DNA from: a virus
DNA length: 64,000 nucleotides
UHGV virus genome: UHGV-2025275
Direction: 5' to 3' (one strand)
The notes beneath the pieces were generated by a model. The model did no database searches. It was not told the origin of the DNA and saw only the letters and a program-made list of their open reading frames with translations. This document shows positions 10,901-28,800 of this stretch, in pieces. Every line of letters begins with the position of its first letter. Position 1 is the stretch's first letter. Made by a program: the position numbers and the translations under genes.

Positions 10901-13900
10901 GGATACTGGATATCCCAAGCAGTTGCACCCTGCAGGAAATCGTAGTTCGGGATCAGGTTGTCACCGGCGTTTCTGGCAGCGGTCAGGGTATTATTCAGGT
11001 TCGTGATGCTGTTACCCTGGCTGGAAATCGTATCCCCCTGCTTGGAGACCGTATTTTGCAGCGTAGACAGCGCCTGTGCATCTGCCTTATTCGCCAGATT
11101 AGCGTTGGTCTGTTCGAGGCTGTTTCGCAGATCAGTAACGCTCTGCGAGGTGCTCGTGACGCGATCACCTACGGTGCTGACGTTTGAGGTGACGGCGCTA
11201 ATGGCATTCGAAAGCGCGTTCATCCCAAGAGCAGAATTCAGCTGGGCTACTTTCTCGGACAGTTTAAAACCGAGGTTAATGTAAGCCTGACCAGTCCATT
11301 GGTTCACCAGGAACTCAACCGTGCTCCAGCCAGCTTTCAGATCAAAGCTAACCGTATTCCAGCTCGCATTACCAAAGGCAGCCCTAACACCGTTCACGTA
11401 CACGGCGCCCGTATCATCAAAAACACGAGCCCCTGGTGCCATAGTGATGGTGGTATCAGCATTGACCTTCACGAAGGCTTTGTAATGCGCGATCACGTAA
11501 CTGCCGGCGCTCGCAAAGTCCAGTTTTGCAGCGTCAGGAACCTCCTCGATCGAGGTTGGCGCCTTACCGTTGATATCGCTAAAGGTCGGCTCAATAGTGC
11601 TGTTTGCCAGTTGTACGTTGTATACGCTACGCACCCACATGTTCTGGCGGCCGTTAACTATCTGGTTTGACAGCGAAGTGATGCTGTTGGAGTTAGACGT
11701 AATGTCTTTTCCCTGCTGGGTCACGGTACTGTTGAGGGTTGATAACGCATTGGACGTCGCATCAATCGCCTTCTCATTGCTCACGTCAACGCAGAAGACG
11801 TCATCGAGATACATATAGCCGGAAGCGACACTTGCGCGCAGAGACACAACCACGCTCGCGGTTTTGGCTGGCGTATACTCGCCGCTAATAAGCGCCCAGT
11901 TAGTCGACAGCCCGGCGCCAGTGATCGGGATATCCTTTATCGGCGTCAGATCTGCGTTTCGAAGGCTAATTTTGTTGTTGCCGGCATTATTGATCGCGAA
12001 GTCAGCGGATTTGCGAACCCATGCGCCGATACGATAAGTCTTGCCGGCCTGCAGCTCGACCGTTTGGTTGCAGCCCGAGTCACCGCCAGAGGCCAGTTTG
12101 CCCGCCTGGATGATGTATTTACCCGATTTGGGGTTCTGGGCCTCCAACAGAGTCCAGCCGACATACTCCCAACCTTCGAAACCACGTTCAAAAGAGTTGT
12201 TTTTGAGCATGTTGCCGATGATCGCTTTCGAGGCATCCGCATCAGCATTGGCGTTATCCAGCGAGTTTGACAGGCTGGTGATGCTCTGGGACTGGCTGGA
12301 GATCTGATTTTCGGCAGCAGTTACGCGGTTTGTCAGATTAGTCACAGCTGAGGCGTCAGCTTTGTTCTTGATGCTGTTCTGCATCGAAGTGATCTGCTGC
12401 CCCTGGCTGGTGATGGTGCCCTCAACAGACGATACCCGAGAGGTCAAAGCATTGGTGGCACTGGCGTTCGCCTCAATCGCCAGAGCATCAGTGACGTCAA
12501 CAAAACCAACATCATCGAAGTACTGAGAACCGGTTTTGAGAGAAGACATGATCGATACGTCAACTTTACCGGTCAGCGTCGCCTTCCAGGTATCAGAGAC
12601 CTCCTTCCATGTTTCATCTTTGGGCAGATTCTCCGGACGGATCGGAATCTCTTTGAGCAACGTGGCCGCGCCAATACGCAGTTTGTTGTTGCCAGGGCTG
12701 CTGATCACCGCATCAGTGGTACACCGCACAAAAGAGGACAGCTTGTATGTCCGCCCTTCGACGACGCTTACAGATTGCGTGATTTGCACCGTGCCGGCGG
12801 CGCAAACAAGAATTTTGCTACCAGAATGGGGCGCACTCGCCTTGATAACACTGGATACGCTGTTCCCTGCAGACCACCCTGCCAGGTCACGCTCAAAGGA
12901 GGCGTTAACCAGCAAATTGCTCGGGTTGCTTTTGGCAGTATCGGTATCGCTCTGGATATCGCTCAGCGAGTTATTCAGGGTGGTGATGCTTTCACTCTGG
13001 CTGCTAAGGGTTTTATCCTGCTGGGTTACGGTCGACTGCAGACCCGTGATCGCCTTGCTATTCGCAGATACACCAGACTCAACACTTCCTACGCGATTGT
13101 CCAGCGTAGACAATGCCGCACCTTGTGATTTAAGGGTGTTGCCCTGCTCTTCAACCTTCTGGGAAATTGTCTGTACTGCACTGGCATCGGCCTTCTGGCC
13201 AAGGCTTGTTTGCAACCCGGTAATCTTGCTTGCCTGGGAAGCTTGTTCAGTGGACAGCGTATGCAGCTCTTCTGCAACAGAGGCTTTGTTTCTGTTGAAT
13301 TCAGTCTGCAGGGATTCACGCGCACTCGCTTCCGCAGCATCGGCAGTGATACGAGCATTTTTCTCCTGATAGATCAGACCGGAGCGAATGTCGTCCAGAT
13401 TTCCGCTTTCAGATGAACCGCGGATTTGTGCAGCCAATGTGCTGCGCGCCTGCGCTTCGGCGGTATCTGCATTCGCACGAGCCTGCTGCTCTTCCTGTAA
13501 CGCGGCCATGCCTGCGCCCGGCGTCGGTCGACCAACGGCGATCCAGTCGAATAACAGGTAATTGTCCGCATCCTGACCCGAAGTGAAATCGAAGCGGAAA
13601 CGACGAATCGTTGTCGAATCCCGCCACTCAATGTCGTGCAGGGTCAGAATCGCAATACCCTTGTCGTCGTATTCCGGCTCATTGATAACCACGGAGCGAC
13701 CAGCATTCCAGCCAGTTTCATCAGCGCCGATCCAGAACATTCTGGCGTTCCAGGTTGGGTTGCCAACCTTTTTAACGCGCATCTTAATGAAACGATAAGC
13801 ATGGGCATCGATCGTCAATCCGTTAGGGGAACGACAGGTTGAGGTCGGATTGTTCGCTTTCAGCCAGCCATCGCTGGTGACGCTCATTGGCGTGTAGCCA

Positions 13901-16900
13901 TTATCATCTTCCGTCCAGCCTTCGGCGTCCTGGTCGAAATACCAGATTTTCAGAGAGTCAAACTGTTCCCCTGTGCCAGCGGCAATCTGCGAGATCTGTC
14001 GCGCGAGGTTTTCGTCACCGGAGGTCACAACCTCAGACAAGCTATCGATAGAGGTTTTCAGCTCATTCTTCGCGCTCAGCAGTTGGTCGGCCGCTTGCTT
14101 GGCTGCATCATTAACATCTGCAATACGGTCATTCGTCTCTTTCTGAATGGCCGCAGTCAGATCTTTGCTGGTCTGGGACAGCGACGTTGTCAGTGATGAC
14201 TGCGCATTCTTAATCTCCTGCGACAGAGCAGCGTCGCCGTCTTTAATCGACTGTTTTGCAGCTTCAATTTGGCTGTTTACGTTGGAGATGTTGGTATTGA
14301 TCGTCTGGTTGACCGTATCGATATTGTCGACAATTGTCTGATTGACGGTATCAATGTCCTCTTTCAGCGACTGATTGACAGAGTCAACCTGCGCCTTAAT
14401 TTCGGAGGAGGTTTGCGCAAGGTCGTTTTCAACTTGCTGAATAGACTCGTTGACTGAGTTCTGAACCTCGCCAATGGCGTTGTCTACCGCCTCCTGAGTG
14501 GCTTTGCTGTCGATTTCGTCGAGCAGCTCTTTGCCGAGTTCAGAAGATGTGATCTTGTCTTTCAGGAAAGACAATACGTCGCGAGTGGTGGCCTCTGTAC
14601 CGAGGTTCGAGTTCGGCTGGCCTACCATCCCACGTTTGTTTACCGCACGAATCCAGTAATACCAGGTCTCGTTGTCACCCAGCCCAGCGTGAGTGAAAGT
14701 CGTTGTGGCGGCCTGAGCAATGAGTGTCGCGGTGTCCAGCTTATTTGTTTTGGACGCATACACGTTGATCTGCGCGAGGTCGACTGAATCAGGGTTAACC
14801 CAATTCAATACCACGTTACGATAATCCCCCACCGCGGTCAGTGATGTGGGCGCCCCTGGCGGCGTCATCGTGCCTTTTACCTGATAGACAGCAGTAATAA
14901 TCTCGGATTTTTTGCCGCCGAAGGAAACGGAATACAGCTGGAAGTCATATCGCCCATTTTCGGCAACATTGACGATTTCATATTGTTCTTCCGTGGCGCG
15001 GGCAGATTGCCAGTTGGAGACGTTGCCCTCGTCGGAGCGGCGCCAGCTGACCCAGTATTCTGGTGATTTACCTTCCCAGGCAAGCATCAGCTTCACGGAC
15101 AAGTTGCCCGGACTGGACAGATAGGTGCCTTCTGAGATGACCAGATTGCTCGGTTTGGAATATGTGGGATCAAGAACCGTCGTATTTTCTGGAACGAGCG
15201 CGGCCCCGTTATCAATCGCCTGGTACTTAGATGCATTGTTCTGCACCACCGTGATATCAAACGACCCCGGGGTTTCACCTTGCGCGATAGCGACAACGCG
15301 CGCCCGCATTGGAACCAGGTCTGGTTCGGTGATCGTCCAGACGCCATTCGCTACTGGTTGATCGGCTGTGGCCAACGCCGTCTTGAAGGTAACTTTAGTG
15401 ATGTTGTCGCCGGTCTCGTTGATGTCTCGCTCAACGATTTTGCCTTCCTGATTGATGATACGGATGAAGCTACCGCTCTTTTTCAGAGAGACAGGTGCAT
15501 CGAGGGTGATGCTGTTTTTGGTGAAAGAGACAATGCGACCGGAATTGCGTTTGCCGGCACGATATTTGTTCTGGATCAGAACGGTTTCGCCCGGCATCAG
15601 GAACGAGGCGTCTAGGCCCGCGGTAAAGGTGATCATGTCTGACTCCATACGCGCGGTATAGAGCAGCCACAAACCTACACGATGAGCCTGACCACGGCTG
15701 GTGCATCCGAACGCAACGGCCTCGGTCTTGCGCTCCCCGTATCGGGCCATCGCTTCCTGATCTTCAACATACTCAACGTTCTGCTTATAGCCGTCTTGTT
15801 TGTTGTTATAAGTGATCAGCGCTACGGACGGCCGGTCTTTTCGAGCAGAGCCTTTATAGGTAAACAGGCCATCTTTTACGTTTGCGTTGGTAAACAGCAT
15901 GACAGGATCAGACGGGCTGTCCTGCATGATATTCACCATGCCACCAGCCCAGAAAACCATGCCACGGAAAGCACCGGCAATATCCTGAATCAGACGATAA
16001 GCGTCCTGACGACTGGTGATCTGGGTGTTGATTGCAAAGCGTTTTTCTTTGCCGCCAAAGCCATCATCAACCTCTTCGTCGCAGTAGCGACCGATCTGAT
16101 AAAGCTGGCCAAGGTCAATCATTGACTCCGAAACAAATTTGCCGAGGCCATAACGAGCATTGGTCAGCAGATCGAACAGAATCCAGGCAGGGTTGGAAGA
16201 CGACAGAAGTTTAAAGGTTCCATCCCAAACGCCGTTATAAGTGTTCGTGTTTTCATCATAATTCGAAGGCACACGGATTTTGAGGCCACGGATAAGATAC
16301 GAACGTGACGGCATAGAGCTACCAAACTGCTCAGAGTTAACCTTAAGGCCAACCAGAACGGAGTTCGGGTAGTTCATTGGGGTGTCAACGATCTCACCGA
16401 TAGAGTCGACCCAGGTATCGTTAAAGAGATACTGATCGTTGCTGTCGGCGGAGAGACGAAGCACGCGCACTTTATAGGCACGCCCAGGCTTTGGAAGCTG
16501 GATTTCGTAACTGCGGTAGTAGACACCAGTCTTTTTCGCAGTCAGCGTCACGTCAGAGCTGCTCTCACCTGCAGCAATCACGTCATAGAAAGAGCCATTG
16601 CCGTTGGCCAGCTGGAACTTAAACTGGACCGAAGTACCGTTTGTGTCCCCTGTTTTCTTGTCAATGTTCCGCAGCGACGGGAACTTCATGATCACTCGGA
16701 CACGATCAGCGTCGTCGTTATCGATGGCGACCGTAACCGCATTTGTGGTTTTCAGCTGTGTGTTAACGGCCTTTGGCGTTTCGACAAAATCGAAACCAGG
16801 CATCGGGCTTTGGTCTTGCGAACCATCCCGGAAATCCCAAGTTACACCGGAACGGTTGAATGAACCGTCTTCGTTCTGTAGCGCCACACCATCGACGAAG

Positions 16901-17091
16901 ATAGATTTAGCACCGTCAATCAACCCACCAACAACACCTTCCCCGAGCAGATCGAGGATAGACGCCATGGTGCGAGAATTAACGGTATCATCCGCTTCAA
17001 CTGGTGTACGGCTTGAGCCTGAGCTCTTTTTGCCGCCCGCTCCCGCAATCAGGAGGGGCAATCTCTTTTTCTTGAACTGATCCATGTTCAA
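4912..17091 (-). CDS. J: Giant central tail fiber / host-specificity protein, lambda gpJ homolog, 4059 aa
   Basis: Roughly the first 1000 aa and last 270 aa align convincingly to lambda J from memory (e.g. SVLVGLKVNSEQFGS, YNGVWDGTFK, CTSRGQAHRVGLWLL, and the C-terminal ANKIVGDVV... block). The middle roughly 2700 aa consists of about 9 tandem modules of a coiled-coil stalk (TLxSTVTQQGDxITSQGNSITxLxNxL) plus a roughly 150-aa beta-sandwich domain with N-x-x-F-E-x-G-W ... YxDDVxVxDVTD signatures. Confidence 0.9.
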   Translation of the reverse strand: MNMDQFKKKRLPLLIAGAGGKKSSGSSRTPVEADDTVNSRTMASILDLLGEGVVGGLIDGAKSIFVDGVALQNEDGSFNRSGVTWDFRDGSQDQSPMPGFDFVETPKAVNTQLKTTNAVTVAIDNDDADRVRVIMKFPSLRNIDKKTGDTNGTSVQFKFQLANGNGSFYDVIAAGESSSDVTLTAKKTGVYYRSYEIQLPKPGRAYKVRVLRLSADSNDQYLFNDTWVDSIGEIVDTPMNYPNSVLVGLKVNSEQFGSSMPSRSYLIRGLKIRVPSNYDENTNTYNGVWDGTFKLLSSSNPAWILFDLLTNARYGLGKFVSESMIDLGQLYQIGRYCDEEVDDGFGGKEKRFAINTQITSRQDAYRLIQDIAGAFRGMVFWAGGMVNIMQDSPSDPVMLFTNANVKDGLFTYKGSARKDRPSVALITYNNKQDGYKQNVEYVEDQEAMARYGERKTEAVAFGCTSRGQAHRVGLWLLYTARMESDMITFTAGLDASFLMPGETVLIQNKYRAGKRNSGRIVSFTKNSITLDAPVSLKKSGSFIRIINQEGKIVERDINETGDNITKVTFKTALATADQPVANGVWTITEPDLVPMRARVVAIAQGETPGSFDITVVQNNASKYQAIDNGAALVPENTTVLDPTYSKPSNLVISEGTYLSSPGNLSVKLMLAWEGKSPEYWVSWRRSDEGNVSNWQSARATEEQYEIVNVAENGRYDFQLYSVSFGGKKSEIITAVYQVKGTMTPPGAPTSLTAVGDYRNVVLNWVNPDSVDLAQINVYASKTNKLDTATLIAQAATTTFTHAGLGDNETWYYWIRAVNKRGMVGQPNSNLGTEATTRDVLSFLKDKITSSELGKELLDEIDSKATQEAVDNAIGEVQNSVNESIQQVENDLAQTSSEIKAQVDSVNQSLKEDIDTVNQTIVDNIDTVNQTINTNISNVNSQIEAAKQSIKDGDAALSQEIKNAQSSLTTSLSQTSKDLTAAIQKETNDRIADVNDAAKQAADQLLSAKNELKTSIDSLSEVVTSGDENLARQISQIAAGTGEQFDSLKIWYFDQDAEGWTEDDNGYTPMSVTSDGWLKANNPTSTCRSPNGLTIDAHAYRFIKMRVKKVGNPTWNARMFWIGADETGWNAGRSVVINEPEYDDKGIAILTLHDIEWRDSTTIRRFRFDFTSGQDADNYLLFDWIAVGRPTPGAGMAALQEEQQARANADTAEAQARSTLAAQIRGSSESGNLDDIRSGLIYQEKNARITADAAEASARESLQTEFNRNKASVAEELHTLSTEQASQASKITGLQTSLGQKADASAVQTISQKVEEQGNTLKSQGAALSTLDNRVGSVESGVSANSKAITGLQSTVTQQDKTLSSQSESITTLNNSLSDIQSDTDTAKSNPSNLLVNASFERDLAGWSAGNSVSSVIKASAPHSGSKILVCAAGTVQITQSVSVVEGRTYKLSSFVRCTTDAVISSPGNNKLRIGAATLLKEIPIRPENLPKDETWKEVSDTWKATLTGKVDVSIMSSLKTGSQYFDDVGFVDVTDALAIEANASATNALTSRVSSVEGTITSQGQQITSMQNSIKNKADASAVTNLTNRVTAAENQISSQSQSITSLSNSLDNANADADASKAIIGNMLKNNSFERGFEGWEYVGWTLLEAQNPKSGKYIIQAGKLASGGDSGCNQTVELQAGKTYRIGAWVRKSADFAINNAGNNKISLRNADLTPIKDIPITGAGLSTNWALISGEYTPAKTASVVVSLRASVASGYMYLDDVFCVDVSNEKAIDATSNALSTLNSTVTQQGKDITSNSNSITSLSNQIVNGRQNMWVRSVYNVQLANSTIEPTFSDINGKAPTSIEEVPDAAKLDFASAGSYVIAHYKAFVKVNADTTITMAPGARVFDDTGAVYVNGVRAAFGNASWNTVSFDLKAGWSTVEFLVNQWTGQAYINLGFKLSEKVAQLNSALGMNALSNAISAVTSNVSTVGDRVTSTSQSVTDLRNSLEQTNANLANKADAQALSTLQNTVSKQGDTISSQGNSITNLNNTLTAARNAGDNLIPNYDFLQGATAWDIQYPAGVAFGNFGDGKAGVKLNRTTTTSPGIFSNNNKPLPLNGQRKYRVVVKAKGVSGAMNMLIRRQNKIGQTDSNYEDKNVTLTSEWQTITWETGLTASNADGQNFKLYAHPANAEIWVDTFKVFDITDEVKIKANSDALSTLSSTVTQQGDKITSQGNSITKLTNDLEVADANIAKKADQSAVTTLTGRVEKTESGLTAANSNITSLSSSLNQQSKRGANLLPDGTFESYAVGHNLSNNRVIVTTDDSHGGSKCIRVTRPNDYNANATDNSDNHIFSGFQVRDNAVFYMECWVKLDAKSTAMAENAQISIGLSLQYQDNSWQWPAVTKAAKDLSTAQWTKVSGYLKSTKSGIKQAMVRISIPNVSSVKAGNSFLIDDLVITEVTDAYNAQSTADANANAISTLDSTVSQQGDQITSQGNSITKLTNDLATTNNNVSKKADQSALSVLSGRVDQTESGLSSANSSITALNSSVRAGNATSGDLISNPTFDPEFSQMGFTVVSSSSEGVPANCPYAYVARIAARDHHPNFAAIPATLGDVYEMSALVACGTGSADFNLYLGTATRPSGSVGAPLSSGGNRKASATWQRVTWRFKINQGIVDRGFFRPFLQINQSSPFGTVWYVTDWHLRNVTDSSKVQDSLDATAKAVDSLTSTVNQQGENISSIGTRTTNLENNLRTTNANVAQKADANALTALTNRVTQTEKDINSTSSSVTNLNNKVDAISVGGTNLIKNSGDMTGWLNVTSDTYRGNAVIGATVKAGSGYRDLREITLESPVDAGEYVYSFYAKGGVAGQIMTAFFYNPNTTTSIETSQGAKGNNSDGRAQFTLTTSWARYWVKWKQTPTTGTKRLILCRIESNTSKDQTVYINSPKFEVGNVVSDWNDSPADSASASAVDLLTTTVNQQGTSISSIGNRTTSLENGLSTAQNNIAKKADASALQDLRNTVTSQGDDLTAANSSITSLQASMNRRTVFTVTARGNGNSVTHGVFDESGKNLFTPGRSWALVTFAKHSDGSTVIATSKTYDVFGSANNGATMSADIEALASGTYVCVLTFDEPTGNRGKVLSALESLGGTSEVVNSLPYRGAYILLGRKGMKPGDGLELRAPTGGDGTAHISTSVEFVNGVMMGLGAAGGVMMKADANASAITTLQNTVKTQGDNIDSLSSSTTALENSLASSNASVDAASQIPGNLIVNPSFERGTEGYTGWSGIATVATLQVPHLGTKAAKLAAGGSAGVGQKISFKKDRSYKIGIWAKQDPNTTIQSTDNTKFRVADGNGLIASKAYGPFTSNWQEVSWTWKATKDVLADVQFTAFLSAGAMYFDDFYVVDVTDSVETQANSSAITKLDSRVTKTENDITSQGSQVTQLKNDLATTNTNVSKKADAAALTALTNRVTQNEKEIETQSSQTTSFKNSLSTVQAMGSNPWFDGSLETYSENQQISGSRAVVVSSQKRSGTKSLRVSRGAGEGGNSDKTIGKWIALRENAVFRIELWAMMPADQSPSSGWSTLVGLQTQNAANNNNWPTAITINEAALGARGAWKKFTGTLRVAAGHTRGAFWVSTRGTTGTGTPGYDLYIDDVVVTDITDAKEAKDSANANASALTSLTSRVTNVEGQVTSQASQLSSLTSQVNDASSKVDQMAQTITNNEKTQSSLNTSLQSQIDAQASANIKNQTELNNATTSMAAIKSTQQTQATTISALSQQQTNLTAQVGGQSAELQELKKTVVENGNVNSTWMVKMETNSNGKKYAAGIALGIDGKNLQSQFLVQADRFGLINTSNGNTTTPFVVENGVAYMNAAVIKDGSITNAKIAQEISSDSRESDGYPTWFINKDGRSRFSNVYIRGEVHANTGVLNNVTINENCTVLGTVQANKIVGDVVTMTDRVVKNWPSTADTSSGTRYPIATVQGMPFERRMVFNGSIIIQQVWRQNVTIRVDETVVWTFDSGNEGKNFETSIFSIRIPASNYGQTQNITIQWPNRGDSGQFRFTGVISMYRTTGSISLA

Positions 17092-17713: not shown

Positions 17714-18498
17714 GTCTCGTCTCCCTTGAGTAAATCCCTGTGACGCAGGTGATGCGTCGTGTGCTTCTGATACATCCCACCGTAATAAGCCCGACAGCTG
17801 AGACGGTCGATCTGGTGATGCATGATCATGCCGTCGCCGATGTATACCGCGCAGTGATCTGGCATTTTCCCGTACTGGATGAAGAAGATGTCGCCGCGCT
17901 GGGGTTCCGTCCCCGGCGCCATGCGGACAAGTCCTTCATTTCGATAGTTCTGGTCGAGGATGTCGTTGTCCCCCGTGTACCAGGAAGGAATATGCAGGTG
18001 GGGGTTTGCATTCAGCTCAACGTCAAATTCACGCTTTAGGTAATCGCGGCACAGCATCCAGCAATCAAACACACCGAATACGTATGGGCGCCCCAGGTAG
18101 GGCATCTCAAAACCACACGGATAAATGACGTTCATTTCGCTAAAGTGGAATGGCATATCGCTTTCCACATTTTTGCGAATTGCCAGAATCATCCACGGTA
18201 ATTCCGTCGCCTCGCACCCGGAGCGATCCGGGTCTGACGCCTCTGCGCTGCGCTCAACGTGAGAGTGCCAAATGGCGATCACTTCCCCAGCATCTTCGGC
18301 CGCAATAATGTCACTGGCACGCATGACAAAATCCTCACGTGGCGTTTCAGAGACATTCATCGCTTCCATAAAGCGATATTTCTCACCCTGTGTGCGCACC
18401 AGAAAGCCACACGCTTCATTCGGGTAACGTTGGATAGCGCAGCGATAGATATCCTGCATGACTTCTGAGCCCAGCTCAGGTAACGTCTGGTTACTCAT
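17701..18498 (-). CDS. K: Tail tip protein K (MPN/JAB plus NlpC/P60 domains, lambda gpK-like)
   Basis: Start taken at MSNQTLPELG..., overlapping the L stop by 8 nt. NEACGFLVRTQGEKYRF and GVFDCWMLCRDY align to lambda K's ESCGFVVSTPEGERYF and GVTDCYTLFRDAY. The longer track ORF (to 18654) begins inside L. Confidence 0.8.
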   Translation of the reverse strand: MSNQTLPELGSEVMQDIYRCAIQRYPNEACGFLVRTQGEKYRFMEAMNVSETPREDFVMRASDIIAAEDAGEVIAIWHSHVERSAEASDPDRSGCEATELPWMILAIRKNVESDMPFHFSEMNVIYPCGFEMPYLGRPYVFGVFDCWMLCRDYLKREFDVELNANPHLHIPSWYTGDNDILDQNYRNEGLVRMAPGTEPQRGDIFFIQYGKMPDHCAVYIGDGMIMHHQIDRLSCRAYYGGMYQKHTTHHLRHRDLLKGDETCLN

Positions 18499-19192
18499 AT
18501 CGTGTCGCCCCAATAAATCCGCCAAAATGAATAACGCCATTCGCGAAGTAGTTGCGACGAGCATTACAGGCGTCGTAACGCTTGGTGCAGTAGTCGGCGC
18601 CGGCCAAAGAGGTTTGCTGGTTGTTTTTGTCGAAATATGGGCCGGTGTAGCCACACTCTGTTCCGCGATATTTCCACGGGCAGCTGTTTTTGATGATCTG
18701 ACGATACGGCAGTTGAACGCCCATCAGATCTAAGACGCTGGACAGCTCGAATTCGACATACTGGTGCGTCTCCAGGGTCTTCTGTTCGACGAACCACATT
18801 TCATCAGCAAAATGCTGACTTGGGTCTGCGGTCGGGTTTCCATCCGGAAAGTTCACCGCGTCCAGAAAACGTGCCAGCGTCATCTTGCGAATGATTTTGC
18901 AGCCAATCAGATCGTCATTGGCCTGCAGCTCGGCAGAAATTACACCGTCGTAGTTGGAAACCTGAATCTTTGGACGAGGAAGTGTTCCCTGACCGCTTTT
19001 ATCAAAGCCAGACGCTTTAATTGGCCACGGCTCATAGGAAACTCCCTGCCAGACAATTGGCTGGCTAAGCCCGTTGGTGCCGGCATGGAAATACAACTTG
19101 CCGCCGGAGGTTGTCACCGACATATCCAGCTCGAACAACTCAATGAGCGCAGAAGGCGATAAACTCTGAATATCAGCTCTAATACCCATCAC
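18491..19192 (-). CDS. L: Minor tail protein L (lambda gpL-like)
   Basis: 233 aa; VWQGVSYEPWPIKASGF, ARFLDAVNF and CPWKYRGTECGY match lambda L, including the cysteine cluster. Confidence 0.85.
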   Translation of the reverse strand: MMGIRADIQSLSPSALIELFELDMSVTTSGGKLYFHAGTNGLSQPIVWQGVSYEPWPIKASGFDKSGQGTLPRPKIQVSNYDGVISAELQANDDLIGCKIIRKMTLARFLDAVNFPDGNPTADPSQHFADEMWFVEQKTLETHQYVEFELSSVLDLMGVQLPYRQIIKNSCPWKYRGTECGYTGPYFDKNNQQTSLAGADYCTKRYDACNARRNYFANGVIHFGGFIGATRYE

Positions 19193-19210
19193 TTCATCCT
19201 TGAAAAACTC

Positions 19211-19231
19211 AACGTCACATCCTGTGACGTT
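19211..19231. repeat. Perfect inverted repeat AACGTCACA tcc TGTGACGTT in the M-L intergenic region
   Basis: Read directly: 9-bp arms with a 3-bp spacer. It is adjacent to palindrome-family copy 19244-19265. Confidence 0.7.
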
Positions 19232-19243
19232 GATATATGATAC

Positions 19244-19265
19244 TAGATAAGTAATTACTTATCTA
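19244..19265. repeat. Dispersed palindrome family copy (TAGATAAGTAATTACTTATCTA), a perfect 22-bp palindrome
   Basis: Read directly. Confidence 0.85.
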
Positions 19266-19275
19266 TAGTCGCAAG

Positions 19276-19611
19276 TTAAGACTCAAAAACCTGTCTAAAT
19301 GTTGCCGTAAGCACTTGATAACCGGGGTAACGCTTTACCGTATGGCTGTCACAAACCACGATAATTGCTTTGCCTCTTGGGTTAGTCCAAATAAATGACT
19401 CCACCCCAGCGCGGGCAGTCAAAAAGTCATCAACGTCGTTTACCACGTCATGGCTACGGGTGAACGTGAGAGACCACTCTTCTTTAATCCGATTGAGCCC
19501 CTGCGACTGGCGCTGCTCGTAATCGTCGCCGTAGTTCAGCACGGTCACGTTAGGCTTTACGGTTTTCTCAGACTCATAATCTGGATACCAATTAAATACT
19601 TTCCTCGACAT
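19276..19611 (-). CDS. M: Minor tail protein M (lambda gpM-like)
   Basis: 112 aa from the ATG at 19611 (MSRKVFNWYPDY...), with an AAGGAAG RBS. Size and position match lambda M (109 aa). The longer track ORF overlaps H. Confidence 0.75.
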   Translation of the reverse strand: MSRKVFNWYPDYESEKTVKPNVTVLNYGDDYEQRQSQGLNRIKEEWSLTFTRSHDVVNDVDDFLTARAGVESFIWTNPRGKAIIVVCDSHTVKRYPGYQVLTATFRQVFES

Positions 19612-19654
19612 ATCACTTCCTTGTGATGGCCGCCCGCTAAGGCGGCCGGCTTTA

Positions 19655-22600
19655 CTACCCTCTGGTGGTATGCGGATTAAGTGAACCACCAGAACGTTTC
19701 TCTTCGGCAATCGTCTCAAGCACAATCGACTTGATTTGCCGTGCTGCGCCGTTCCAGAGACTGCTCTCGCTTCCACTGCTGCTCTCGCTGGTTCGGCCAT
19801 CCTTGGTTACATTGATCTGAATCGAGACAGGTGACACCGCATTACCCGTACTCTTTCCACCTGACTCTGCAGAAAGTGTGACTGGAATGGTTCGACCATC
19901 TGGCAGCGGTACGTAAGCCTCATTCATTGAGCCCTCGCCAAACATCGCCAACTGCGGTGAGGTGGCGATTCCGCCTTTCTGATAGGCTCTCAGAGGTACA
20001 ACCCCTTCCTTGCCAAAGATGCCGCCATTGGCGTGTTTCTTCACATTAGGCTTTGGCTCAGATGAAGACGATGAAGCTGACCCAGCCCAGGCGGATACTG
20101 CGGTACTGGCCAGTGACAGACCGAAATTCAGCCAACGGCTGGACGAACTCGACGACGAAGCACCTACCATGGCGAATGTAGCTGCCAGCGCCCCAGCCGC
20201 GGTAGACAGATTCCCCATACTGAGGATGCTGCTGTTAACCGCTTTGGTTTGATCTTTCGTAGCGTCAGTACCGGTGAACAATGACTTAGTCCAGTCCCAG
20301 ACGCCATTCACCGCCTGACTTAAACCACTGGCCGCATTCTGAGACGCTTGCCCCATAGAGTTCACGCCGGAGGCTGTCTCCTTAGTGGCCTCGCCGACAG
20401 ATTTATCCCCATTGGCCACCGACACACCAGAATTACCTAGCTGAACCCCTTGATTAGCGATCGCAGACGCTACGCCATTCATGAGATTTCCACTTTGTGC
20501 ATTGCCAGCGTTTGTCGTTCCCATTCCCAACATATTCATGAGAGGCAAAGTGATCTGAGTCTTCACGACCATGTTAGTGATGTCTTTAAGGAACGATGTG
20601 GCCAGACTGGAGATGCTCATCTTCCCGTTAACAACAAAGTCAGTAAGCGTGTCAGTTAAACCGCTAAACAGATCTGTCCAGGTACCTTCGATCTGGTCAG
20701 CCAGGTTTTCATATTCCAGAGCCAACTGCTGGGTCGCTGTGCCTGTTTGCTTAATCAGCGCATTATTGCCAGCGGCCACCAGCTGATTAAGCTGCTTGTT
20801 GTAAAGCGAGATGATTTTCGGGTCAGTCGCCTTATCACGCAGCTCGATCAGCGCCTTAAGATTGCGGTTGTAGGTATCCGAAAACTCGGCAGCCTTCTCC
20901 TCATGGCTTTGCATCAAGCCTGCGCTGATAATCGAATCCGATTCCGGCGCCCAAGCGCTGATCATTTGCTCGACGTTGCGGCGATTAAACATTTCACGGT
21001 ATTCGGGGGTAGCGTTCCTCAAATCCGCGAGACGTTTTTTAGCCTGGTCAACCATCTCCTGCGAGATAAACTCGTTAGGCGTGGCGTTTGCAAGATCGGT
21101 TAGTGACTTAGTGACATCACGCAGCGACTGATCAAACGACACGGTGGCCTTTGAACTTTCGCCCATTTGCCCCATGAGCTGATCAGCTTTATCCAGAGCC
21201 TTCTGGAAGCCGGCAGCCAGCTTCTGTTGCGCACTTTCCTCCCTCTTCGCGGCGCGTTCAGAGGCATTCGCGGTACGCTTCCCCGCCCTCTCGGCGGCAG
21301 CAGCATCCTGTTCACGAGCTTTGGTTAGTGCGGCTATGGCGGCTGCACGCTCCTTCTCGCTCATCTTTTCCAGAGACGATGCAGTGGAGGCTTTCTGCAG
21401 GTTAAGCTGGGTTTTAAGCTGCTTCGGCCCAATGATAGGTTTTCCTTCAAAATCCATCATTGGTGTGCCATCAGGCAGCGTGCGCTGGTAAACCGCAGAG
21501 TCCATCTGGTTGCGCATGTACTGCGCGAGCGCTTTATCAGCGCCTTTGTCGCTGGTGCCCAACCCAAGCACTGTTCCCTGGTTGGTCTTCACGCCCTTCC
21601 CGGTTTTCGCCGCGTTATCGCGTTCAAACTCAGCCCGTGTCAGTTCCTGAGCAATCGTCTCCAGGTGTTCCTGATAGCCGCGAATACTGCCCTGCAGCTT
21701 CTGTACCTGTTCTGTGTTTCCTTCTTTTTTCGCCTTTTCCAGCAAATCGCTAAAATGTGCGATCTGCTTTTCAGTTGCGGTCTTGCGCGATGATAAAGAG
21801 TCGACAAGTTTCTGGGCCGGCTGCAGATAAGATTTGTTTACTGTCTCTCGCAGCGGCGCAAGCAGCTTGTTCTTCTCATCATCGGACAGTGTTTTGTCGT
21901 CATTGATCTTCTGGATTTTGTCCAGTGCCTCCTGACGCGCTTTAACAAACGTAGCTGAGAAGAGCTGATTGTCCGCCCGGATTTTCTCGATCTGGGATTC
22001 AGCAGCCTCTTTCGCCAGACGTTTGGATACAGCGCCATCCCCCAGCGCGATGGTGTCAGTGGTTCTCTTGTACTCTTCCTGATTTTTCTTCAGTCGAGCC
22101 TCAACAACCTCTTTAGACTCCTTAACGGCGACAGGGCCGGCGACTGTGGAAATGTAGTTCACACTTTCGCCAGATTTAAGCGCTTGCTGGTCCCGCTGAA
22201 TTTGCTTCTCTAGCTGCGATGCGCGCTCCGCCATTTGTGCGCGCTTGGCCGCCGTCATCGCTTCGGGGATTTTGCGAATCTCCTCAACAACTTTGGACGT
22301 TTCGTTGCGAAGCATGGTCATGTAGGTGATCAGCCCGGCAACAGCCACTGTTGCAACGGTAAACGCAGCACCAATCGGGTTTGCTGCGATAAACGCAGTC
22401 AGCCCAGCGAATGCCCCTTTCAGCCCCGTAATCGCGCCACGAATGGCAAAAATGAGCGATGGGATTGGTGCCAGTCCCATGCGTGCAGCACGATTGAAAC
22501 GAGTGACCGCCGTCGCTCCCAGCGTGAATGGTGTCTGGATTACAGTGGACATCTTCATGAAGGTGGAAAGCATCTGGCCGCCGGCGCCGACAACACCTAA

Positions 22601-24193
22601 AATGCCCGCTCTGAGCATTTTAAATGCCACCATTCCGGCGACAATTTTGCCCAGCGTAATAACCAACTCCTGATTCTTAGCCAACCATTGCGCCAGCTCG
22701 CGCAGGCCATCAATCGCGGTGGTAAGCCCCTCGCCCAATGAATTAGCGAACGAAATGCCTTCTGCGCTGTTCATTACGGCCGCCAGCTCTTTCATCCCCT
22801 TGGTCAGAGAATCAAGATATCCAGCCTGCCCTACTCGATCGGCAAACAGAGTGAAAGAGGTTTGCAGCTGCGCCAACGCACCGGTGTAGGTTTGCATCAT
22901 ATCTTTGGCGGCATTTTCGTTTTCCGCACGCAAACCAACAAACATCAATGAAAGAGCCTGTTTCGCTTCAACGGTCCCACTGGAGACGGCTTTGGTTAGC
23001 TCCCCCATCGTGATACCAGCCGCATCTGCCATAGCCTTCATCGCATTTGGAACCGCTTCACCCAATTGCTGGCGGAGCTCTTCCATCGACACAACGCCTT
23101 TACCAGACATCTGTTGGACGGCCACCGCCGCTCGCTTAAGCAACTCACTATCGCCACCAAAACGTGCGACTGAGTCCACCAGTGCCTTTAACGAGCCATC
23201 AGTAGGATCGAGCCCAGCAGAACGGAACTTCACAAATGAGTCGGTTAAAGCCTGCATCGCAAATGGGGCATTTTTAGCCATGTCCACGATGTACTGCATG
23301 TCTTGGGCGGCAGCTTCTCCAGGATTGACCTTATCCTTGTTCAACCCACGCAACATGACACGCATACGCTGCATCTCGGCCGCAGCCTCTACGATCGGCT
23401 TCTGCCAACCAAACAGGATGTCAGTGACCGTTCTGGCCGCATCCCCAATTTCCCCCAGAAGGAAAATATTGCCGCGTAATCCAGAGAAGACGCCATTTTC
23501 ACGACCACCACCGCGATGGGACGCAGCGGTAAATCGATCAGCGCCACCTCCGCTGCCTCCCCCGACCGTTGTGGTTGTTCTAACCCTGACCGGACGGCTG
23601 ATCAGCTGCTGGCTTCGAATAACGCCATCCATCTGATCTTTGACTTTTTTTAACCCCTCGGCCGCCTGGCTTGTCGTTGTTCCCCAATTACTCAGACGCT
23701 TGCTGGTCGCATTTAGTCTGGTGTTCATTCCACCAAGAGAAGTAGTGGCACCCTTGATCTCAGTGTTGAATTTACCGGCATGGTCTCCTGCGTATTTAAC
23801 CCAATCAGAAAACTCATTGAGTTCCGACTGAACCTTCCGCAATGATGCCAGGAACTTGTGCGTAGACGATGTGGCTGAATCAACGCGATCGGTGAATGTC
23901 CGCAAATCAGTGCTGATAGCGGACAGTTCACGTTGTGCCTTTCTAGAGGTGTTGGAAACGAGCTCAAAACCGGCAGCTACGTCCTGTAGTTTGTCTGCCG
24001 TAGAATTGAGTCTGGTTTCAAGAGCGCCAAGAATGCTGGAGACCGAACCCAGAGAGCGCTCGAGGTTTTTAATTTTTTGAGCCGGTTTGGTAGCCCGCTC
24101 GCCAAATTTGGTAAGTAATTTACCCGCCCGGTCGATTGACGCCGTAAACTGTTTGTCTTCCAGCGACAGGATAAACTCTACGTTTTGTGACAT
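19655..24193 (-). CDS. H: Tape measure protein (lambda gpH-like), about 1513 aa
   Basis: Huge alpha-helical, Ala/Gly/Gln-rich protein between G/GT and M. The C-terminus has a glycine-rich segment. Start taken at MSQNVEF...; the track start 7 codons upstream is a TTG. Confidence 0.85.
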   Translation of the reverse strand: MSQNVEFILSLEDKQFTASIDRAGKLLTKFGERATKPAQKIKNLERSLGSVSSILGALETRLNSTADKLQDVAAGFELVSNTSRKAQRELSAISTDLRTFTDRVDSATSSTHKFLASLRKVQSELNEFSDWVKYAGDHAGKFNTEIKGATTSLGGMNTRLNATSKRLSNWGTTTSQAAEGLKKVKDQMDGVIRSQQLISRPVRVRTTTTVGGGSGGGADRFTAASHRGGGRENGVFSGLRGNIFLLGEIGDAARTVTDILFGWQKPIVEAAAEMQRMRVMLRGLNKDKVNPGEAAAQDMQYIVDMAKNAPFAMQALTDSFVKFRSAGLDPTDGSLKALVDSVARFGGDSELLKRAAVAVQQMSGKGVVSMEELRQQLGEAVPNAMKAMADAAGITMGELTKAVSSGTVEAKQALSLMFVGLRAENENAAKDMMQTYTGALAQLQTSFTLFADRVGQAGYLDSLTKGMKELAAVMNSAEGISFANSLGEGLTTAIDGLRELAQWLAKNQELVITLGKIVAGMVAFKMLRAGILGVVGAGGQMLSTFMKMSTVIQTPFTLGATAVTRFNRAARMGLAPIPSLIFAIRGAITGLKGAFAGLTAFIAANPIGAAFTVATVAVAGLITYMTMLRNETSKVVEEIRKIPEAMTAAKRAQMAERASQLEKQIQRDQQALKSGESVNYISTVAGPVAVKESKEVVEARLKKNQEEYKRTTDTIALGDGAVSKRLAKEAAESQIEKIRADNQLFSATFVKARQEALDKIQKINDDKTLSDDEKNKLLAPLRETVNKSYLQPAQKLVDSLSSRKTATEKQIAHFSDLLEKAKKEGNTEQVQKLQGSIRGYQEHLETIAQELTRAEFERDNAAKTGKGVKTNQGTVLGLGTSDKGADKALAQYMRNQMDSAVYQRTLPDGTPMMDFEGKPIIGPKQLKTQLNLQKASTASSLEKMSEKERAAAIAALTKAREQDAAAAERAGKRTANASERAAKREESAQQKLAAGFQKALDKADQLMGQMGESSKATVSFDQSLRDVTKSLTDLANATPNEFISQEMVDQAKKRLADLRNATPEYREMFNRRNVEQMISAWAPESDSIISAGLMQSHEEKAAEFSDTYNRNLKALIELRDKATDPKIISLYNKQLNQLVAAGNNALIKQTGTATQQLALEYENLADQIEGTWTDLFSGLTDTLTDFVVNGKMSISSLATSFLKDITNMVVKTQITLPLMNMLGMGTTNAGNAQSGNLMNGVASAIANQGVQLGNSGVSVANGDKSVGEATKETASGVNSMGQASQNAASGLSQAVNGVWDWTKSLFTGTDATKDQTKAVNSSILSMGNLSTAAGALAATFAMVGASSSSSSSRWLNFGLSLASTAVSAWAGSASSSSSEPKPNVKKHANGGIFGKEGVVPLRAYQKGGIATSPQLAMFGEGSMNEAYVPLPDGRTIPVTLSAESGGKSTGNAVSPVSIQINVTKDGRTSESSSGSESSLWNGAARQIKSIVLETIAEEKRSGGSLNPHTTRG

Positions 24194-24200
24194 TCCCTTG

Positions 24201-24868
24201 TCATCCTCTGCCAAAAATTTGCATCAGCTGCTCTTTGGCGTCGGGGTCTGCCTTATCCATATGCGGACGGTAGACTTTATCAGTAACGACTGGCCTTCCA
24301 ATCCTGAGTTGCAAACCCTCCATGAACGCCTTAACGCCATCGCCATCCGCTTGGGCGACGCGGGCGACCTGCAGATTGCGGACATCCTCTTCCGCTCGCA
24401 GACGATCGATATTGCGGCTGAGCATCCAGAACATGGTCAATGGGACACTCAGTAGCTCTGTTGGCGATACGGCGTAGTGAGCAACTACACGACTGAAATA
24501 GAATCCGAGATCTATCGAAACGGTCTTTACCCCGGATTCATCGCGGGATATTACTTTGCCCCTTCGCCAGCCGCTTTTTCGTTCTCTTCATCAATCACTT
24601 CCATGGCGAAGGTGAAGATCTGCTGGAGTTGCTGGACAGTCAGTTTTTCCAGAACGGAGTCAGGTACTGACGGAATGACTTTGCGTACCAGTTCTGCGTA
24701 GGCAGTTACCTGGTCGACGGGAGACATATTCATGAGGTCTTTGTCTTCCATCTGCTTGATAGAAACAAAGAGGCCGACGGTCATTTCAACGATGGGATAT
24801 TCTTTGCCACCAAATTTGATGCTTTTTTTCGGCGGCAGAATGGAGTCGAGATCGAGTAATTTGGTCAT
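24201..24868 (-). CDS. GT: Tail assembly chaperone GT fusion made by a predicted -1 frameshift; the T part is 24201-24578 in the -1 frame
   Basis: I translated the -1 frame by hand. It is open from 24587 down to 24201 and overlaps the G 3' end. The putative slip site is GAA-AAA-G (5 A's, + coordinates 24574-24580) about 8 codons before the G stop. The product would read ...EENEK-SGWRRGKVISRDESGVKTV.... The heptamer is non-canonical. Confidence 0.5.
24551..24868 (-). CDS. G: Tail assembly chaperone G
   Basis: 105 aa, acidic C-terminus, located between V and H as in lambda. Confidence 0.65.
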   Translation of the reverse strand: MTKLLDLDSILPPKKSIKFGGKEYPIVEMTVGLFVSIKQMEDKDLMNMSPVDQVTAYAELVRKVIPSVPDSVLEKLTVQQLQQIFTFAMEVIDEENEKAAGEGAK

Positions 24869-24929
24869 GGTTTAAATCCTTTTAAACTCATACAGAGGCC
24901 CATCCATGGGCCTCTTGGGTTATCACAAT

Positions 24930-25676
24930 TTAGCTTGCGGCAGTTACAGAGACGGCTTTGGTCGCCTTCTTGGCACCGTCATTAGTTGTGAAGGTGATAT
25001 TGGCTGAACCGACAGCTTTACCAGTTACCAGTCCGTTCTGATCTACGGTCGCTTTATCAGTCGCATCAGAGCTCCACACGCCAGTCTTATTGGTTGCATC
25101 GGCCGGGGTGAAGGTTGCGCTCAATTGAACTTTAGCGCCCACTTTTACGGTCGGTGAAGACGGGGTCAGCGTGACGCTCTCAACCGGCTTTGGGAGGCTC
25201 ATTTTCCCCAACACGCCAGCGTCGTCCGGGTAAGCGGAAAACTCAACTGAGAACACGCGAACGTCGTCAGACTGGTAGGTCATGGTGAAGTTACCCGCGG
25301 TTGCTGCTTTAGGGATGGTCAGAACATAATCCGTCGCATCCTGCGGGGTCAGCACCAACTCTTTCGCAACGTCGATCAGGTTCACTCCCTGCGCAGACGT
25401 GATGGTTACGGTATCTTCGCCAGAACTCAGCGTGGAACCTGGCATCAGATCGACCATGTTTTTCAACACGGATTCAGCCAGCGGCGCAGTAATGGTGATG
25501 TTGCGGCCCTGGATCAGCTCGGAGATCGTGGTCTGGCCCAGCTGGTCTACGGTCACTTTCAGCGTTTCGGTTGCGATTTCAACCTGAACACCGCCTTTGG
25601 TGTAACCCAGATCCACGCCACCAAACGACACCTTGCAGGCGCCAAGCTTGATGTTTTTAACATGGGTATTGGACAT
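24930..25676 (-). CDS. V: Major tail tube protein (gpV-like) with a C-terminal Ig-like (Big_2) domain
   Basis: 248 aa. The C-terminal roughly 90 aa (VTLTPSSPTVKVGAKVQLSATFTPADATNKTGVWSSD...) is a typical Big_2 Ig-like domain, as on lambda V. Confidence 0.8.
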   Translation of the reverse strand: MSNTHVKNIKLGACKVSFGGVDLGYTKGGVQVEIATETLKVTVDQLGQTTISELIQGRNITITAPLAESVLKNMVDLMPGSTLSSGEDTVTITSAQGVNLIDVAKELVLTPQDATDYVLTIPKAATAGNFTMTYQSDDVRVFSVEFSAYPDDAGVLGKMSLPKPVESVTLTPSSPTVKVGAKVQLSATFTPADATNKTGVWSSDATDKATVDQNGLVTGKAVGSANITFTTNDGAKKATKAVSVTAAS

Positions 25677-25723
25677 TATTGGAAAACTCCTTTTTCCGTT
25701 AAAACAGTGTCATTCCGACACAC

Positions 25724-25748
25724 AATAGTAAGTATATACTTACTTATT
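25724..25748. repeat. Dispersed palindrome family copy (AATAGTAAGTATATACTTACTTATT)
   Basis: Near-palindrome in the intergenic region between V and the upstream gene. Confidence 0.75.
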
Positions 25749-26223
25749 TATTCAGTTCAATAAAGTACCCGGCAAATTCAAGTGGAATCCCCGTTTCAAT
25801 AAGCGATCCGTCATTTATTGGGTACGTTATTGGCATCGCCATCGGCCTAACCATTTTGAAGAATACCCCGTCAGACTCTACGTTGCTAACAGGAAGGATA
25901 TCCATGATTTTGTTTGCCATTTCAACAGATTTTGTAATACTCGCATTGCGAACTACTATCGTGAATGAGTCGAAGTAAAAACCCTGCAAATCCGGATCGA
26001 TGGTTATGCCTGTATTGGGATTAATCAGCAAGATGCCAGACTTAACTTTTGCTGGCATATAGTGACAGAAAATGTCTGTCCCTACTTTTCCAAGCCCATT
26101 TTTCTGTATCAATTTTGCGAATGCTTCTACAAACACATCAACCTCGCGTAAATCCTGCTTTTCTGGCGGCTTCCATGATCGTCTGCGAAAATTGCTTTTC
26201 GCTGATCTGAGTCGCTCGCTCAA
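25744..26223 (-). CDS. Putative tail terminator / tail completion protein (by position); the start is uncertain
   Basis: 159-aa ORF immediately upstream of V. Its 5' end overlaps the preceding gene by about 85 nt, so the true start may be internal. Confidence 0.4.
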   Translation of the reverse strand: MSERLRSAKSNFRRRSWKPPEKQDLREVDVFVEAFAKLIQKNGLGKVGTDIFCHYMPAKVKSGILLINPNTGITIDPDLQGFYFDSFTIVVRNASITKSVEMANKIMDILPVSNVESDGVFFKMVRPMAMPITYPINDGSLIETGIPLEFAGYFIELNK

Positions 26224-28787: not shown

Positions 28788-28800
28788 TTATCGCTCCTAT

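Follow-up and report, generated by a model that had tools for sequence, protein, structure and literature searches.

The operators of phage P1 are asymmetric 17-base-pair (bp) sites bound by monomeric C1. Plasmid RK2 carries 12 dispersed palindromic KorB sites, in which the operator OB is a 13-bp palindrome bound by the helix-turn-helix (HTH) of a ParB-type protein, and N15 has four dispersed palindromic centromeres. In the Cluster A mycobacteriophages (L5, Bxb1), the motif of the repressor-binding stoperators varies by lineage and co-varies with the repressor (PMC6550527). Here, we describe a 20-bp palindrome repeated across a 64,000-nucleotide (nt) stretch of the virus genome UHGV-2025275; this whole stretch is called the window below. 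Judged by analogy, its closest functional counterparts appear to be the P1 C1 operators and the Cluster A stoperators, with RK2 KorB/OB a looser parallel.

As in P1, the carrier is a plasmid prophage of ∼100 kilobases (kb) with many scattered copies of one operator-like site, and one repressor would hold many lytic operons. Induction would likewise use antirepressor-type proteins, and a Rha/Ant homolog and a gene with a LexA box are present here. The sites differ from those of P1 in being 20-bp dyads, extending to ∼30 bp, and in lying also inside late structural operons; the annotations of the relatives include nothing C1-like. The likeness to stoperators lies in 20–30 putative repressor sites per genome, early and late, in short intergenic gaps, some of them in promoters and most not. 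Stoperators, however, are asymmetric 13-bp sites that follow the direction of transcription and bind a monomer non-cooperatively, whereas the sites here are symmetric with an unoriented core, a larger share of them (∼45%) falls on promoter-like sequence, the hosts belong to the Enterobacterales, and the phage families are not related. Because P1 operators and stoperators are both asymmetric and have unrelated monomeric repressors, and no such asymmetry is seen here, the palindrome is not a member of either family. A palindrome in a promoter spacer or at a start site is also typical of XRE or cI/Cro-type repressors, and the candidate binder discussed below is a small XRE-type HTH protein encoded beside the integrase, with a site over its own predicted start. 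In contrast to the two to six operators of a classical immunity region, there are ∼27 sites over ∼100 kb.

The window belongs to a Klebsiella SSU5-type phage-plasmid and has nearly all of its genes on the minus strand, which is the sense strand throughout this text. Bases 18000–38000 share 98% identity with vB_KpnS_p4727 and pJN2-26, two phage-plasmids of Klebsiella, and ∼80% with SSU5 of Salmonella and with Cyrano, CMS-2020a, and PhiR41_1 of E. coli. Annotation was transferred from pJN2-26 via alignment and compared with the list of open reading frames (ORFs). The minus strand encodes the lysis, tail fiber, tail, head, portal, and terminase proteins, two ParB-N-domain proteins with ABC-type ATPases, and the early functions of nucleotide metabolism; on the plus strand, a short operon encodes a UvsW-type helicase, a 91-amino acid (aa) protein, and an FljA-family protein. 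Phage-plasmids of the SSU5 type are common in Klebsiella, E. coli, Salmonella, Enterobacter, Cronobacter, and Yersinia, and 141–302 plasmid records match a query from the TerL region. Some carry resistance genes (PMC9600943). We found no description of their lysogeny control, and no prior description of the motif in searchable papers on SSU5, pHCM2, pMT1, pLF82, and Klebsiella p2.

The sequence ATAGGTAAGTACTTACCTAT has nine matches in the window at three or fewer mismatches, compared with 0.00 expected from 100 dinucleotide shuffles. A position weight matrix built from sites of the window, pJN2-26, and SSU5 picks out 15 places in the window, and looser and matrix-based scans give 14 sites in all. 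The dispersed repeat reported in a sequence-only reading of the window is therefore real. Each copy comprises two half-sites of consensus ATARGTAAGT, and the dyad symmetry runs past 20 bp (AAAATR...YATTTT) to about 30 bp. Twelve of the copies listed in that reading are genuine copies or variants (3385–3412, 19244–19265, 25724–25748, 28837–28858, 30770–30791, 32284–32304, 37801–37828, 44540–44560, 54617–54648, 58565–58584, 63410–63433, and 63562–63586). A thirteenth, placed at 57518–57531, exists but lies at 57505–57524, and a copy at 50322–50341 had been omitted. The remaining entry, 34314–34330, is not a copy; it is the core TAATAAGTGACTTATTA of a separate palindrome of ∼110 bp, with a second copy at ∼57895–57914. 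Sites do lie between genes of both the early and the late regions, as had been claimed, and those of the window are intergenic or overlap a stop codon, except for 30771–30790, which is inside the 3′ coding end of the portal gene.

The palindrome is a genome-wide feature of the relatives, with 25–31 sites per genome in five complete genomes. At 12 bits or more there are 28 sites in pJN2-26 and 27 in SSU5, and a stricter cutoff gives 20 in Cyrano. In SSU5, 25 of the 27 sites are intergenic, compared with an intergenic fraction of 11.6% of the genome (binomial P = 1.1e-21). The upstream stop codon is close to the sites, typically ∼13 nt off and sometimes overlapped, while the distance to the next start ranges from 1 to more than 150 nt; together, the sites divide the lytic strand into ∼27 blocks. 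There are none within the leftward helicase/FljA operon or the adjoining ∼15 kb of small accessory genes. Orthologous positions are kept across the Klebsiella, E. coli, Salmonella, Cronobacter, and Pectobacterium elements. Shared positions include the TerL/portal junction, the 3′ end of the portal gene, the flanks of the capsid gene (downstream in Klebsiella, Salmonella, and Cronobacter; upstream in Pectobacterium), those before nrdA, thyX, and the methylase gene, and the divergent region between the helicase and ParB-like genes. With intergenic enrichment in SSU5 and orthologous positions in the relatives, the palindrome is neither unconserved nor as dense in coding sequence as between genes, either of which the sequence-only reading would have taken as the mark of a compositional artifact.

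The positions of the sites are stable, and their sequence changes by lineage. Among 80 IMG/VR loci anchored on TerL, a palindrome-like element is always present at the TerL/portal junction; its inner bases are lineage-specific, and the other sites of the same locus change likewise. Complete genomes confirm three genome-wide types with ∼25–31 sites each at the same gene junctions: type A, ATARGTAAGTACTTACYTAT, in Klebsiella, E. coli, and Salmonella; type C, ATAGGTAGTTAACTACCTAT, in Cronobacter NZ_CP017663; and type E, GTAKGTATTTAAATACSTAT, in Pectobacterium NZ_KP942676. E. coli phage Cyrano is type A genome-wide, and the difference seen in the E. coli group is a single-site variant. Matrix A finds 25–26 sites in pJN2-26 and SSU5 and 21 in Cyrano, matrix C 25 in Cronobacter, and matrix E 31 in Pectobacterium. 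Non-cognate matrices find 2–14, and for each genome its own matrix performs best. The distant Rhizobium phage RHEph10 has gene order in common with these elements. Its first 50 kb contain 10 or more copies of a 20-bp palindrome (TCAGTCAATATTGACTGA-like) that is unrelated in sequence, and some of these occupy comparable positions, for example the tail M/L and CobT/CobS junctions.

Taken jointly, sites that hold their positions, a consensus that is palindromic in each lineage, and change across whole lineages point to a sequence-reading factor that acts in trans and co-evolves with the motif, and the concerted nature of the change argues for a factor encoded by the phage. A host factor was considered as the reader and rejected: the exact 18-mer core occurs in only four contigs among 185,579 species genomes and is therefore not a host motif, and the motif differs among phages of closely related hosts.

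These patterns also bear on whether the copies could be repeats without a dedicated binder, either promoter or stem-loop cassettes that recombination has spread and made uniform, like the PeSL cassettes of T4-type phages or REP-like elements, or weak bidirectional terminators. The symmetric flanks (A-rich, palindrome, T-rich) would suit such repeats, as would the 4-bp periodicity of the half-site, a (GTAA)n expansion at one site, and the terminator-like score of another. That score, however, is reached by 1 of the 14 sites in an intrinsic-terminator scan (28859–28836, with three GC pairs). A G+C-rich stem followed by a T run is not characteristic of the motif, the stems being AT-rich and often mismatched, and true terminator-like hairpins adjoin the motif rather than lying within it. 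Positions that hold over deep divergence while the sequence changes in concert in place are not what repeats of this kind predict, 20 bp is short for gene conversion, and no RAYT- or transposase-like gene was found in the annotations of the relatives or in profile searches of selected window proteins. We regard such binder-free repeats as very improbable, and as the least likely of the explanations weighed here.

The sequence-only reading had offered two interpretations, a dimeric regulator with scattered operators and an RNA stem-loop, and the variation between the arms separates them. At positions 4 and 17, the combinations G-C (10), A-C (10), A-T (9), and G-T (8) show no association. Watson-Crick pair counts equal those of controls in which the right arms were shuffled among the sites of a genome (z = +0.66, −0.52, −0.78, and −0.50 in four genomes), and no compensatory covariation between arms was found in these four genomes. 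RNA fold energies of eight sites range from −15.2 to −3.7 kcal/mol, and three of the eight fold no better than shuffles: the TerL/portal site (−4.4 kcal/mol, z −0.6), the portal 3′ site (−3.7 kcal/mol), and the site at 50322. Independent variation of the arms, without compensatory pairing, and the lack of conserved hairpin stability favor a dimer bound to duplex DNA over a hairpin of either RNA or DNA. A homodimer on duplex DNA would be expected to give half-sites of this kind, which are independent and have one position degenerate for purine or pyrimidine.

A stem-loop within polycistronic transcripts could nevertheless serve in processing or stability, or as a translational operator, for example for the FljA-family protein (40351–40881). 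The palindromes are transcribed and intercistronic, some lie 1–16 nt before a start codon, and some give stable folds, at −15 kcal/mol. The leftward operon has a conserved gene for a full-length FljA-family protein, and FljA-like proteins repress fliC translation (PMC2652032). Against this stand the absence of arm covariation, A-C mismatches as common as G-C pairs at positions 4/17, and the weak folds at the TerL/portal and portal 3′ sites. The central four bases, moreover, are palindromic in every lineage (GTAC, TTAA, TTAA/AATT), which a loop does not need, and Rfam has no match in the window. The FljA-family protein was rejected as the binder, since the E. coli fliC leader shares with the motif only a trivial ATAGG resemblance. 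An asymmetry between G-T and A-C on the sense strand, which could be a signature of RNA, was also discarded: the excess (32 versus 23) is not significant, and orthologous sites are counted more than once in it. Covariation and stability together argue against an RNA hairpin as the shared basis of the sites, and we consider a function in RNA very unlikely.

The 14 sites of the window are as follows; promoter-like matches give the −35 hexamer, the spacer length, and the −10 hexamer.

3389–3408, sense strand: GTAGGTAAGCACTTACCTAC, between the tail-fiber stop (3426) and the holin start (3338), within a 28-bp palindrome (3385–3412); a conserved extended −10-like element, TGATATAAA, lies ∼20 nt downstream; orthologs at pJN2-26 69442, SSU5 27474, and Cyrano 26657.

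19243–19266: variant copy TAGATAAGTAATTACTTATCTA with 4 extra central bp, of which 19244–19265 form a perfect 22-bp palindrome, flanked by the stop of tail M (19276) and the start of tail L (19189); the sense promoter-like match is TAGATA-17-TATCAT; a terminator-like hairpin (19233–19209) is next on the sense strand.

25728–25747, sense strand: variant copy ATAAGTAAGTATATACTTAC, overlapping the stop of gene 25744–26136, 51 nt ahead of the major tail gene start (25676); sense promoter-like match TTGAAC-18-TATACT.

28838–28857, sense strand: ATAGGTAGGTACTTACCTAT, 8 nt past the major capsid stop (28866), followed by a strong terminator-like hairpin (28826–28806) and then the next gene (28787).

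30771–30790, sense strand: ATAAGTCAGTACTTACTTAT, inside the 3′ end of the portal gene, 100 nt ahead of the next gene; best promoter match of the region, TTGAAA-17-TATCAT (10/12), with the palindrome as its spacer.

32284–32303, sense strand: ATAAGTAAGTACTTACCTAT, with bases 2–4 (TAA) forming the TerL stop codon and an end 16 nt upstream of the portal ATG; what this junction carries differs by lineage.

37797–37826, sense strand: degenerate copy GTAAGTAAGTAAGTAAGTACTTATGCAA, which contains a (GTAA)4 expansion and lies in the 92 bp that separate the divergent genes for the ParB-like protein (ATG 37778, minus strand) and the UvsW-type helicase (ATG 37871, plus strand); at 37801–37826 the sense strand has (GTAA)4, compared with (GTAA)2 in pJN2-26 and 18 IMG/VR relatives, an 8-bp tetranucleotide expansion.

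44540–44559, sense strand: weaker copy TATTGTAAGTACTTACCTAC, with a terminator-like hairpin before it and an ATG 37 nt after it on the sense strand; by eye TTGTAA-17-TAGTAT, under the scan threshold; same site at pJN2-26 28036.

50322–50341, sense strand: ATAGGTAACCACATACTTAT, overlapping the stop of the DUF4942 methylase gene; an extended −10-like element, TGTAAGAAT, starts 5 nt downstream; orthologs at pJN2-26 20935, SSU5 84178, and Cyrano 84620.

54617–54648, sense strand: the best copy, a perfect 32-bp palindrome, AAAATGATAGGTAAGTATTTACCTATCATTTT, in a 400-bp intergenic region.

57505–57524, sense strand: ATCGGTAAGTACTTACCATT, overlapping the stop of gene 57524–57754 and directly followed by TTTAAA-17-TAAAAT with TG.

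58565–58584, sense strand: ATAGGTAAGTGTTTACCTAT, 12 nt ahead of the ATG of an adenine methylase gene.

63411–63430, sense strand: ATATGTATGTACTTACTTAT, ∼17 nt ahead of the thymidylate synthase start; promoter-like match CTGACA-17-TAATAT, whose end is within the copy.

63565–63584, sense strand: weaker copy AATTGTAAGTATCTACTTAT, overlapping the stop of gene 63583–63990; promoter-like match TTGTAA-17-TATATT.

Promoters were called as matches to the sigma-70 consensus hexamers. The late region has nine such matches, fewer than shuffled sequence, and of the six on the sense strand three fall on motif sites; one of these three, at the portal 3′ site, is the best match. The early region behaves like the late region. 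In a second such scan, of four genomes, sense matches (at least 9 of 12) overlap 9 of 22, 11 of 21, 7 of 14, and 10 of 24 sites and antisense matches 2, 4, 2, and 5, which amounts to 37 of 81 sites (∼45%) versus 13 (P = 0.0009), while genome-wide totals are similar on both strands. Within the window, 6 of 13 sites have a sense match and one an antisense match. TAnnnT is balanced between the two palindrome ends (16 versus 16, 15 versus 16, 11 versus 9, and 12 versus 16). Because the core is symmetric and the −10-like ends are equal on both strands, the strand bias comes from the flanks, and many sites are therefore embedded in gene-oriented promoter-like sequence. A fixed −10 element downstream of the motif was rejected, as TATYAT belongs to the extended palindrome and is equal at both ends, which defines no oriented promoter.

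In the commonest geometry, the −35 hexamer starts 6 or 3 bp ahead of the palindrome, the palindrome forms the 17-bp spacer, and its last TAT opens the −10 hexamer. The spacer arrangement at the portal 3′ site is also present in the Cronobacter and Pectobacterium types, and in RHEph10 a palindrome lies, by eye, between TTGnnn and TAnnAT (TTGGCA-17-TACCAT). Other copies are placed over the start site, over the −35 position of extended −10-like elements (as with TGTAAGAAT and TGATATAAA), or upstream of such elements. Estimated from match offsets, the palindrome center is at about +8, −20, −23, −29, or −45 relative to predicted promoters. Such variable placement suits a repressor and not an activator.

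Positive control, by a lytic-phase activator or a promoter-specificity determinant that serves ∼27 promoters with a weak or absent −35, is one alternative. Most sites have a −10-like TATYAT at their edge and no good −35, and before the holin gene and at 57505 the palindrome is at about −45 with respect to an extended −10-like element. P1 late promoters, which have a −10 and an inverted repeat instead of a −35, offer a parallel, and RHEph10 encodes its own sigma factor. The −10-like hexamers, however, are equally frequent at both ends of the palindrome, and its position ranges from +8 to −45, whereas activators need a fixed geometry. A center at −20, between good −35 and −10 hexamers at the optimal 17-bp spacing, is an arrangement of the repressor type. 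The sites also cover both early and late genes, unlike those of an activator for one temporal class, and the annotations of SSU5-type genomes include no sigma factor. We therefore consider positive control unlikely. The RHEph10 sigma-70-family gene (39826–40461) lies between CobS and DNA polymerase, where SSU5 has only a 67-aa ORF.

Considered together, the palindrome is probably a protein operator on DNA tied to promoter control, and there is about an even chance that it is the site of a lysogenic repressor; the copies, their placement and conservation, their concerted change, the lack of pairing covariation, and the association with promoter-like sequence are observed, and from these patterns we infer that a protein binds, in which direction it regulates, and which protein it is. 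In the proposed mechanism, a homodimer of one phage-encoded, sequence-specific protein would read the two half-sites on duplex DNA and, once bound, would occlude RNA polymerase at many promoters simultaneously. At copies without a recognizable promoter, the bound protein could block elongation. The result would be genome-wide repression of lytic operons during the plasmid prophage state, and the motif sequence would then define the immunity type. The likeliest binder would be an XRE-type repressor encoded next to the integrase.

The gene for this XRE-type protein adjoins the integrase gene outside the window; in PQ492289.1, the full genome closest to the window, it occupies 73832–74209. Its predicted promoter, TTTACA-16-TAATAT, has GGTAAG(T/C)ACTTACC one base beyond the −10 hexamer in nearly all of the 80 loci, which span three lineages; a few loci have AG- or GA-TAAGCACTTACC, and one begins too near the gene to show the promoter. 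The recognition helix, GYKN(P/A)N(I/N)LSLIK, is conserved in those three lineages, although the proteins share just 56% identity overall, but not in Cronobacter (SNIK) or Pectobacterium (SMLK), where it differs. In Cyrano, which is inducible by ciprofloxacin, the XRE gene is among the few genes expressed in lysogens (PMC9928086). We propose the XRE-type protein as the binder only tentatively, as a possibility that falls short of an even chance.

Several observations weigh against an operator read by this repressor. The co-variation of the XRE helix with motif type involves three lineages that differ in everything else too. The XRE promoters of Cronobacter and Pectobacterium have no clean cognate site at the same place, the RHEph10 XRE homolog is encoded on the lytic strand, and SSU5 has no XRE homolog yet keeps its 27 sites. 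The promoters are predicted only, from consensus matches, and a match is absent at about half of the sites. Some sites end 1–16 nt ahead of a start codon, and several (past the capsid gene, past tail M, and ahead of nrdA) have a stop codon on one side and a strong terminator-like hairpin on the other, where a promoter would hardly be expected. Finally, two window sites contain 4 extra central bases (TAAGT-AATT-ACTTA at 19244–19265 and TAAGT-ATAT-ACTTA at 25728–25747), which a rigid dimer would tolerate poorly.

The comparison with Cluster A phages bears on two of these points. The sites beside terminator hairpins may be roadblocks, like most stoperators (PMC6550527), or weak promoters. Lytic D29 is described in the mycobacteriophage literature as a deletion derivative of a temperate parent (PMC5712189). 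Mycobacteriophage D29 retains repressor binding sites, and SSU5, which has no XRE gene but keeps 27 sites, would parallel it; by this analogy, SSU5 may be a repressor-less derivative.

The order of stop codon, palindrome, GC-rich terminator-like hairpin, and next gene recurs at pJN2-26 5035, at window 28838 and 19243, and at their orthologs. Before nrdA, the predicted start of the motif-embedded promoter falls in the 5′ arm of the terminator stem. Speculatively, transcripts begun there could escape a terminator that halts upstream read-through, which would not be so at the capsid site.

Other candidate binders fit less well. When identity was compared gene by gene in the 80 loci and in four genomes, none of the genes showed a categorical switch with motif type. 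The sequence-only reading had put forward three regulators encoded in the window. The first, an 88-aa winged HTH (wHTH) protein (34376–34642), is LexA-like with a Pfam E value of 7.6e-4, below the family cutoff, and its recognition region does not differ between motif types A and C. The second, the 91-aa ribbon-helix-helix (RHH)-like protein (39432–39707), has no Pfam match and is the fastest-diverging gene product of its region. Its predicted DNA-contact strand varies among type A genomes and is similar between one type A and one type C genome, and the protein was rejected as its divergence is out of step with motif type. The third, Rha (52849–53691), is an antirepressor-type protein. A 70-aa wHTH protein encoded after the ligase gene, outside the window, is absent from a Cronobacter genome that has 25 sites.

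The two ParB-N-domain proteins at the head of the late operon (37098–37802 and 36430–37107) raise the question of whether the palindromes are loading or centromere-like sites, serving partition, long-range silencing, or both. Both are core genes, and the first directly follows a motif variant. As with the RK2 KorB operators, at least a dozen identical palindromes are spread over the plasmid, some at promoters and some far from them, and ParB-family proteins are encoded; the dispersed centromeres of N15 are a further likeness. Unlike KorB, the ParB-like proteins have no recognizable HTH; the first retains the arginine patch and box III, but by eye no HTH follows these motifs. The proteins do not co-vary with motif type, the conserved C-terminal segment of the first (TMRFKV...) being invariant across types. 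Promoter association and strand bias are unexpected of centromeres, for which the separate ParA module and the three large palindromes of ∼110 bp are better candidates. A loading or centromere-like role for the motif is highly improbable. No more probable is a combined scheme in which the palindromes would also be entry or roadblock sites for a ParB-type CTPase-fold pair, in a KorB/KorA-like silencing by sliding clamp and site-specific partner over ∼27 sites. Were this true, the motif type would set both immunity and incompatibility.

The ∼110-bp imperfect palindromes form a separate family, found in the window at 34260–34370 and ∼57850–57960, with arms GGTCTGGG...CCTGC..GTATATAT around a TAATAAGTnACTTATTA core. 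There are three copies per genome (pJN2-26 15285, 38548, and 74858; SSU5 33473, 78319, and the record end). One, which the sequence-only reading had named element A, is always between the 88-aa wHTH gene and a small-terminase-like gene. These palindromes are candidate packaging, origin, or centromere sites.

A near-consensus LexA box, TACTGTATATTTAAACAGTT, with one mismatch (0.18 such boxes expected), lies at 49416–49435. It is located between a TTGACT hexamer and the ATG of a 64-aa ORF (49206–49400, minus strand), with a hairpin before it. The ORF is a candidate SOS-induced small antirepressor, which would be consistent with the ciprofloxacin induction of Cyrano.

The FljA-family protein of the plus strand (40351–40881) is full-length (PF03614, E = 1e-86), with a weak Hfq-like match in its C-terminal part. 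Its gene is present in all relatives examined, within the only conserved leftward operon, together with the genes for the UvsW-type helicase and the 91-aa RHH-like protein. The family comprises translational repressors (PMC2652032), and this member may act on host flagellin mRNA.

The window itself is a mosaic. The late region and 35.8–47 kb are 97–98% identical to pJN2-26, compared with only 75–80% at 57–63 kb, where the 45–55-nt flanks of five sites (63565, 63411, 58565, 57895, and 57505) are near-identical to SSU5. A single ORF of 4,059 aa (4912–17091, minus strand) is a tail fiber by the pJN2-26 annotation; its SSU5 counterpart is the 1,385-aa tail protein SSU5_020, followed by a separate tail fiber gene of 1,260 aa.

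If one protein reads the ∼27 operators and these control most of the lytic transcription units, the switch between plasmid and virus becomes directly testable, with a single protein and a single site to examine and several natural specificity types to compare. These types would then predict which elements are heteroimmune and able to co-reside or superinfect, and SSU5 would be explained as a repressor-less derivative. The strategy of many identical sites used by P1 and the Cluster A phages would have arisen in a third, unrelated phage lineage, here with a symmetric site, and would persist from Enterobacterales to Rhizobium phages.

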